Assembly: GCA_051362555.1 (NCBI GenBank) | Contig: CM120641.1 | Location: 46,444,401-46,508,400, forward strand | Length of the DNA stretch: 64,000 nt | Direction: 5' to 3' | From: Lingula anatina | Lineage: Eukaryota > Animalia > Brachiopoda | Shown: piece after piece, positions 47,701-50,700 of the stretch | How the letters are laid out: each line of letters begins with the position of its first letter | Numbering within the stretch: the stretch's first letter is position 1 | Program-made: the position numbers and the translations under genes | The notes under the pieces: generated by a model | What the model was told of the DNA's origin: nothing | Databases searched by the model: none | The model's input: only the letters and a program-made list of their open reading frames with translations

Positions 47701-50700
47701 TAGCGATATATGCCAGAACATCTTGAGGGTTTTTTTCTTTCCAAGTAAAGTTTATACATTTTGAAGAAAAATAAATCTTACCCTCAAAATACATAAGATA
47801 TAAAATTGTTTTTTCATTCTACAAGTACAATTTATGATCATTAATAAAAATTGAGTCATCTGCAAATATCCTATTCAATTTCCCCCAGGTTGTTGGGCTG
47901 AACTTCTCCAGTGCCACCACCCCAGAGTTGATGCTGAAGACCTTTGACCACTACTGTGAGTACAGACGTACACCCAACGGCATAGTGCTGGCCCCAGTAC
48001 AGCTGAACAAGTGGCTGGTGCTCTTCTGTGACGAGATCAACTTGCCAGAGATGGATGCTTATGGTAAGGAGAGCCAATTTGGAATATCAGTTATACAGTC
48101 CTTAGCGGATTTTGCAAATATTTCCACTTTTTCTATAAGGTTTTTCATTTGTTTCTTATTTATATCTCTTATGTGTTTTTCAACAGAAATGACCAAAAAT
48201 ATTTCAGCAGAACTAGCAGGGCGCCAGGGATAATGAAATGTTCATTTCTCACATAATCCTTAATTCTCTGCCTTAATATAAATAAGTCAGCAATTGCTCA
48301 TTCCTTATTATAAAATATATTTGTAAGTATTTGTAATGTTACTATTTCCTGTATCCAGGCACCCAGAGAGTGATCTCATTCCTGCGCCAGATGGTGGAGC
48401 ATGGCGGCTTCTACCGTACCACAGACCAGCAGTGGGTGAAGTTTGAGAGAATCCAGTTTGTGGGTGCCTGTAACCCGCCCACTGACCCAGGCAGAAAACC
48501 TCTGTCCCACAGGTGAGTATGTCACAGACTGTGAATATAAGAAAGATCATTGGCATTCTAAGTAAAGGAGATTAAAAAAAAAACAGCAAAAGACTCAAAT
48601 CCTGATTTCAAATTGTAAGTGTCAGGCTCTGTACTGCTTTGATATAAAACTATACTTATTTTCCAAACTAGATTCTTGACATAAAACTGGCTCTGTTTAT
48701 TTCCCTCCCACTAGATTCCTGCGCCATGTCCCAGTGATCTACGTGGACTACCCTGGCAAGACCTCCCTGACCCAGATCTATGGCACCTTCAACAGGGCCA
48801 TGCTCAGGATCATCCCCAGCCTCAGACCCTATGCTGACCCTCTGACCAATGCCATGGTGGAGTTTTACACTATGTCACAGGTAAGTCTCAGACCCTATGC
48901 TGACCCTCTGACCAATGCCATGGTGGAGTTCTACACTATGTCACAGGTAAGTCTCAGACCCTATGCTGACCCTTTGACCAATGCCATGGTGGAGTTCTAC
49001 ACTATGTCACAGGTAAGTCTCAGACCCTATGCTGACCCTCTGACCAATGCCATGGTGGAGTTTTACACTATGTCACAGGTAAGTCTCAGACCCTATGCTG
49101 ACCCTCTGACCAATGCCATGGTGGAGTTTTACACTATGTCACAGGTACAGATGAATAAACTTTGTCAGTTATAAGCTTTTGAAGAACTGTCAGCGCTCTG
49201 CTGCAGCTTTTGTTTGCACTGACATTTTGGTTGTGAGGAGTTGTCATATCGCTTGAACAATTTTATTGAAGAAAATAACTAATATCAAAGAAATAAAATC
49301 TGAATGGGAAACTAAAAGGCATTTTGTTCACTCCAAATTTTGAAGATATGTTCTTAATGTCAAAGATGATAAGAATCCCTTTTAAGGGGCCCGCATTTGG
49401 CGCGCGCCACTTGCGCTGCGCCGTTTTCTCATCGTGTGCGGGGGTATTTTGGTGAGATTTTTGCCTCGCGCGGCTGAGCAAAATTTCTCACGTGTTTGAT
49501 TTTTTTGGTCTCTTGAGACAAATGTCTCACCGTGTGCGGGGTGCAAGCGCCGATTGCTCACGCCATGCTAACAATGCGCATGTGCCAGTAGCCGGAAACA
49601 AACAAAAATGGCAGCCCCCAGCGAAGTCAACAAAAATGTACACAGTTATAGTTAGTCTGATTGATTGACGTGGTCACCATTATCCATTACTATCAGAAAA
49701 AACAACAATATGTAATGTTTCCTTAAACACATGATCCCACAGTTCACAGTGCGTCCGCTAGGGGCAGGCCGGGAGGCATCTCTGCTGAGCAAAGAGCGCA
49801 TTGTTTGCGGGGAGCTGAGGAGCGCGAGCATCTGGCGCAGCAAAAGTGGCGCGCGCCGAATGCTCACCGTGTGCGGGCCCCTTTAAGAACCATTTTCTAA
49901 TAAGATGTCCATATATACATAAATGACTTAAATGTACATTTCTGATCCTCACTTTCCCAGGAGAAGTTCACCCAGGACATGCAGCCCCACTACATCTACA
50001 GTCCTCGTGAGATGACTCGCTGGGTGCGTGGGATCTGTGAGGCCATACGTCCGCTGGAGTCACTCCCTGTGGAGGGACTGGTCAGGATCTGGGCCCACGA
50101 GGGACTGAGATTGTTCCAGGACAGGTAGGTGGAGCCACTTGTCAGTGTGGGTTGAATTGTTTTAGGATAGATAGATGGAGCCACCTGCCAAACTAAGTAC
50201 AACTTTGAATTTAAAGTTTACGAAGAAGAAATTTGGACAGGCCAAAACATGGTCAACATGCCTCAAGCACATTTGCCTTATATAAACAAGAAGAGTTACA
50301 ACCAAGGTATTTTTAGTATTATCAATCATCTGTGTCTATATTATTCCCTTCTGCTAGAAAGAAAAATGTATTCAACATATCTTTTGTATAATATTCAGAC
50401 TGGTAGATGAAGAGGAGAGGGTGTGGACAGACCAGAACATAGACTCTGTGGCTTTGGCCCACTTCCCTAACATAGACAGGAATACTGCCCTGGAGAGACC
50501 CATACTGTTCAGTAACTGGCTGTCCAAGGACTACATCCCAGTGGATAGAGAAGAGCTCAGAGACTATGTCAAGGCTAGGCTGAAGGTATGGGGTTTTATT
50601 GTTGTATATTTGTTTATTTTAATATTTTTCAGATATCAGATTGTTCTTCTCTTGAATGGATTTAATGACTTAATGTAGCAAAAAGGCATTCACACCGTGA

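Follow-up and report, generated by a model that had tools for sequence, protein, structure and literature searches.

A likely silent boundary-spanning minisatellite at an AAA3 lid exon of the cytoplasmic dynein-1 heavy chain gene of Lingula anatina

An exon of the cytoplasmic dynein-1 heavy chain gene of the brachiopod Lingula anatina ends in an array of five head-to-tail 66-nt units with a splice donor in each. The array and the donors at its junctions lie within the window, the whole 64,000-nt stretch of DNA analysed here. The array is present in DNA from three studies, and the mRNA of four RNA samples holds a single copy. We consider it very probable that this is a real minisatellite spanning the exon-intron border and likely silent, with splicing at the first donor, removal of copies 2-5 with the intron, and dynein of normal length.

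The window carries most of the gene on the + strand, and its exon chain follows motor-domain order. The exon that ends in the array (Table 1) corresponds to residues 2727-2781 of human DYNC1H1 (PDB sequence match, E 2.6e-26), and this match together with the dynein motor domain order places the gene among the cytoplasmic dynein-1 heavy chains. Cytoplasmic dynein-1 is essential. The second half of the exon aligns with the first 33 positions of a 93-position Pfam model for the dynein ATPase lid (PF22597, DYN_lid), which sits between AAA_7 and AAA_8 in homologue P0017 and is therefore the AAA3 lid. The SPR motif after the insertion point presumably marks the AAA3 sensor-II region. Sequence motifs on both sides of the insertion point were present in 90 of 120 homologues, with an identical spacing of 55 residues in 88 of the 90; the two with other spacing resemble intron read-through, and no array-like insertion at the AAA3 lid site was found among the 90. 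A QacR-like Pfam match on the repeated frame had no passing stretch and was set aside as a repeat artefact.

Table 1 Features of the array and of related border duplications in the window.
Feature	Position	Strand	Remarks
Dynein-1 heavy chain coding exon	48715..48880	+	End of AAA3 large domain and start of AAA3 lid
Unit 1, last 63 nt of exon plus GTA	48818..48883	+	Probably the translated copy
Units 2-5, exon-end copies with spare donors	48884..49147	+	Probably intronic; RNA depth zero beyond 48881
Rest of intron	49148..49960	+	X1 contig runs from last unit into 49148 onward
Next coding exon, rest of AAA3 lid	49961..50125	+	tblastn; RNA loose ends give first 27-30 bases
Decayed duplicate over donor at 50125	50146..50190 (within 50110-50190)	+	Period 46 nt, 80% identity, GT lost
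Decayed duplicate over acceptor at 53560	53464..53504	+	In degenerate 128-131-nt intron array

Re-analysis of the sequence bears out the description given in the first-pass annotation, namely a five-fold, in-frame and stop-free 66-nt duplication with five phase-0 donors. Units start at 48818, 48884, 48950, 49016 and 49082, and the last ends at 49147 (TRF: period 66, 5.0 copies, 98% matches, score 633). Each is made up of the 63 nt at the 3' end of the exon, which are its last 21 codons (human DYNC1H1 2761-2781), followed by GTA. Every unit encodes the same 22 residues without a stop, and read-through past the last unit meets a stop after 9 codons. A search of the rest of the window for 14-mers of the unit gave no second occurrence. 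Three sites vary between units, all of them C/T and all synonymous on recount, as the annotation had held: unit position 3 (AGC in copy 1, AGT in copies 2-5), position 25 (TTG in copy 3) and position 48 (TTC in copies 2 and 3).

Since units 2-5 start with AGT where the exon has AGC, the four junctions (donors after 48880, 48946, 49012 and 49078) read CAG/GTAAGT, with the slash marking the splice site, and the donor after 49144 reads CAG/GTACAG. The acceptor at 49961 is in phase 0 with all five, and unit 2 supplies bases +4 to +6 of the unit 1 donor with its first letters. When scored with a rough weight matrix, built on 39 automatically called donors of the dynein gene of which some are miscalled, CAG/GTAAGT ranks above 97% and CAG/GTACAG above 51%. 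The first donor matches the U1 complement at 9 of 10 positions and the last at 7. The last donor is thus weaker, as previously claimed, but it is ordinary for this gene rather than unusual; the same 9-mer is also the called donor at 59698. With AGT in place of AGC the junction donor fits the consensus, and the change may have been favoured on that account. We also considered RNA structure as a cause of donor choice and rejected it, as the first donor had no special exposure (unpaired 0.48 vs 0.33-0.49).

We aligned eight of 21 sequencing runs (X1, X2, X3, X6, X10, X12, X15 and X18) to a target of 48321-48920. It takes in a full unit and the first 37 bases of the following one, so that the array is not spanned by any read. 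Sequence that bears a junction shows as cover beyond 48883. The target ends in unit 2, so the joint to 49961 was read from the loose ends of the alignments. The unit-to-unit junction was found in contigs of three of the four DNA runs (X1, X3 and X10, from three studies); the X2 contig ends at 48837 and gives no coverage of the array. X1 may be the source of the assembly, in which case it lends no independent support. Its junction contig (48854-48916) has a depth of 250 and a unit contig 263, whereas in the same run contigs of a single haplotype lie at 45-52 and shared ones at 83-99. In a word-count model of X1 the 5+1 genotype, with five units on one chromosome and a single unit on its partner, is excluded (expected 125-147, seen 250) and genotypes from 5+3 to 5+5 fit loosely. 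The unit contigs of X3 reach depths of 519 (TTT) and 264 (TTC) vs 25-55 in the flanks, and in X10 a contig (48860-48916) matches the junction without differences. No single-copy allele was seen in these three runs that cover the array. Taking contig depth as a rough proxy, in runs that may pool animals, we estimate ~5-6 units per diploid in X10, 8-10 in X1 and ~14-28 in X3. Array length likely varies between individuals.

The synonymous differences and the wide occurrence of the array bear on its age. The first-pass annotation had proposed a very recent expansion, and a single event of this kind is not supported: the identical junction occurs in the DNA of three studies, and in X10 it stands beside an intron, directly upstream, replaced by 229 other letters. 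Haplotypes with introns this different share the array, so it is no private event of very recent date, and the 97-98% identity among units is better explained by continued exchange. The annotation's other suggestion, exchange between alleles, fits, as the TTT/TTC difference is found among the copies and also in mRNA from several individuals. TTC at 48865 was read in 6/6 reads of X12, 13/30 of X15 and 2/13 of X18 as well as in the X6 contig, and accounts for 37% of array depth in X3 DNA; TTT and TTC both segregate in the coding copy. No T at 48820 was listed in RNA reads. The probability that three free changes would all be synonymous by chance is 1-3%, or 5-10% with TTT/TTC set aside, and that of CTG/TTG alone 22-32%. 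Where unequal exchange draws copies from coding alleles, the differences passed on are synonymous ones, and the synonymous-only pattern is at least partly due to such sampling. The upstream intron (48514-48714) has strongly different alleles, with 105 letters replaced in X2 and X3 as well, which points to high polymorphism in the species.

Donor use was read from three raw RNA runs of three further studies (X12, X18 and X15), chosen by species label and read to 6-25%. All reads that reach the donor end at 48881, a G common to the intron and the next exon (X12 6/6, X18 13/13, X15 29/29; 48/48 in total), and the loose ends listed (6, 13 and 28, respectively; 47 in total) all read the exon at 49961. 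mRNA from donors 2-5 would hold a unit junction and so would have covered 48884-48920, but none of the 48 reads in the three runs enters a junction and depth is zero over 48901-48920. A 3218-nt contig of X6 likewise has a single copy, joined from 48880 to exon 49961. X6 is labelled 'DNA?' and was treated as RNA because it contains exons only and a spliced joint. Upstream of the array-bearing exon, RNA also gives a spliced joint over 48510-48713 (GT..AG). The 48 reads and the one contig, from samples whose carrier status is unproven, therefore all reflect normal splicing at the authentic site, and extra units in mature mRNA, whether as a coding VNTR or as an alternative 5' splice-site ladder, were found in 0/48 reads. 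If all RNA samples carry the array and reads are independent, the 95% upper bound on later-donor use is ~6%; the 48 reads are compatible with leakage of a few percent or with leakage in an unsampled tissue, and heterozygous carriers would halve the sensitivity of the test. The RNA samples lack intronic depth and are not tied to proven carriers. Variants did not link an RNA run to a DNA carrier either, as X6 differs from X1 at 48781 and 48865 and from X2 at 48378. Given the array in 3/3 informative DNA runs, a uniform prior puts the probability of its absence from all four RNA samples at 1.4%, and the lower bound of its frequency puts it at 16%.

These data separate the two outcomes that the first-pass annotation had foreseen. 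A dynein of variable length finds no backing among the RNA reads that reach the donor, and masking of the array through the first donor fits all the RNA seen. The annotation had also stated that mRNA of a single length would make the array an intronic VNTR; this is the outcome that the reads give, with the caveat that the RNA runs are not tied to a proven carrier.

Other duplications over splice borders were found. In P0001, a protein from another record, the translation conceals a fourfold repeat of this dynein exon end together with the intron start, at a 145-nt period and out of frame (compatibility 0.85 vs 0.45 +/- 0.05, with the array read from a protein translation, not DNA). P0001 is the top match and a gene-calling product, and the query was biased toward finding such arrays. 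It probably represents an independent multiplication of the same exon end; being out of frame, it would indicate that such arrays can persist without keeping the frame. Within the window, one duplicate overlies the donor at 50125 and another the acceptor at 53560, the latter in a decayed tandem region (53130-53576) with periods of 72 and 128-131. The scores of these two duplications were each reached by 0/2000 shuffles. Both are decayed and older than the five-unit array.

The window has further features of interest. Approximately 5 kb downstream of the array, three paralogous 196-nt exons (54382-54577, 55271-55466 and 55867-56062, + strand; 66-72% identity) have equal splice phases and encode the same microtubule-binding stalk stretch, and their length is not a multiple of 3. 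The third had a match to Pfam MT at E 0.005 and the other two had none. They form a candidate mutually exclusive cluster and look more interesting than the array; a mutually exclusive exon is described for Schistosoma DHC1 in the parts of PMC3228551 and PMC5100056 consulted. A 46-nt element is common to two introns just after their donors (47678-47723 and 57199-57244, 83% identity). The intron after the array holds a MITE-like GC-rich element (49385-49882) with 11-nt terminal inverted repeats, TTA flanks and further inverted arms, which by these features is putatively PIF/Harbinger-like. An exon on the - strand (21743-22024), which resembles a Vti1-type SNARE, and the apparent dynein start (23792 onward, +) are arranged head to head, ~1.8 kb apart; a protein search with this exon gave no match.

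The arrangement of the array is already known from human and lancelet genes. As in other boundary minisatellites, the first unit spans the exon-intron border, here fixed by RNA reads, and a splice signal is present in each unit, here five CAG/GTA donors. The comparisons that follow draw on excerpts of the papers cited. IVS7 of human F7 contains a 37-bp VNTR with a copy number of 5-9 that is spliced at its first donor alone (Borensztajn et al. 2006, PMC1557585), and the accompanying mutation study found that among identical tandem donors the most upstream one is used. The Lingula array is like that of F7 in its border-spanning first unit, its donor in every unit and the use of the first donor alone. 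It differs in that the out-of-frame F7 unit combines 4 exon with 33 intron bases, whereas the Lingula unit has 63 and 3 and is in frame, and in that the used Lingula donor is completed by the first bases of the next unit. First-donor use was established by mutation and minigenes in F7 and is deduced from reads in Lingula. Human IFI 6-16, CBS intron 13, LMNB2 and PDGF intron 4 also have boundary minisatellites (PMC1557585), the 31-bp VNTR of CBS being c.1444_1467+7(16_21) (PMC2630376), and in all of them, as in Lingula, the exon end and donor are repeated within the intron. LMNB2 and PDGF use the authentic donor only, whereas in IFI 6-16 and CBS the two donors that follow are used too (PMC1557585), a leakage not seen in the 48 Lingula reads. 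The mirages of lancelets, in Adh3, the globins BflGb6 and BflGb9, troponin C and PGBD5, are likewise minisatellite-like exon-intron border duplications in an invertebrate, for which haplotype length differences, concerted evolution and normal splicing are reported (PMC3087553, PMC3902484); we do not claim the lancelet-specific name for the Lingula array. Intron gain by tandem genomic duplication (model in PMC3087553) would also start from a tandem duplication that holds splice signals, but in Lingula there is no new intron; the donor that was already there has been repeated, and the original acceptor is retained. The part of PMC10078293 consulted held no direct parallel to the array. The in-frame, nearly all-coding unit and the donor completed by the next unit are a variation of detail.

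We propose that a tandem duplication across the exon-intron border would have created the junction donor CAG/GTAAGT, which equals or exceeds the last donor in strength. The first site may then be favoured through exon definition or through a choice of donors from 5' to 3', by analogy with human F7. Unequal exchange between alleles would shift copy number and keep the copies alike, and would account for the coding synonymous variant TTT/TTC among them. The in-frame 66-nt period may be chance, at 1 in 3.

A different reading has later donors used at a low or tissue-limited level, so that extra 22-residue copies enter the AAA3 lid and selection keeps the units in frame and synonymous. The stop-free, phase-0 units of 66 nt with their four top-ranked donors speak for it, as do the leakage to the next two donors in human IFI 6-16 and CBS (excerpts of PMC1557585) and, as its strongest point, the exclusively synonymous differences between copies. 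We nevertheless regard it as unlikely. None of the 48 RNA reads from three studies enters a junction, 88 of the 90 homologues lack an insertion and the other two are unrelated to such a repeat. Array length also seems several-fold variable between individuals, which is hard to square with a tuned protein, and the P0001 array at the same exon end is out of frame. Under such low-level or unsampled-tissue use, array length could set the number of extra 22-residue helices in the regulatory AAA3 lid, with exchange with the coding copy keeping the intronic copies translatable; we think this distinctly unlikely.

Alternatively, the RNA samples could come from non-carriers, while carriers splice mainly at a later donor and make a longer dynein. 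The missing RNA-DNA link leaves room for this, and X18 reads are more diverged (17/51 at 90-95% identity), so the species label may span distinct populations. Against this stand the presence of the array in all three informative DNA runs, from three studies, the exclusion of the 5+1 genotype by X1 depth, and the length-invariance of the AAA3 stretch among homologues of an essential protein, and the idea is very unlikely. An assembly artefact, which the first-pass annotation had already argued against, can hardly be credited: the copy number of exactly 5 has no confirmation from spanning reads, but junction words occur at high depth in X1 and again in X3 and X10 from other studies, and TTC variant copies are present in X3 DNA. 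A real array spliced at its first donor thus remains the reading that we prefer.

As it stands, the finding is of little significance, a further boundary-spanning minisatellite that is seemingly silent. Two details lend it modest value, one of them the separate out-of-frame array at the same exon end in P0001. The other is that, as the unit is nearly all coding, in frame and stop-free, a wrong choice of donor would escape nonsense-mediated decay. The array offers a clean experiment of nature on how the first donor is chosen, in an essential gene outside the mammals. If leakage to later donors were true, Lingula dynein-1 would carry a length-polymorphic insertion in the AAA3 lid that is absent from all 90 homologues.
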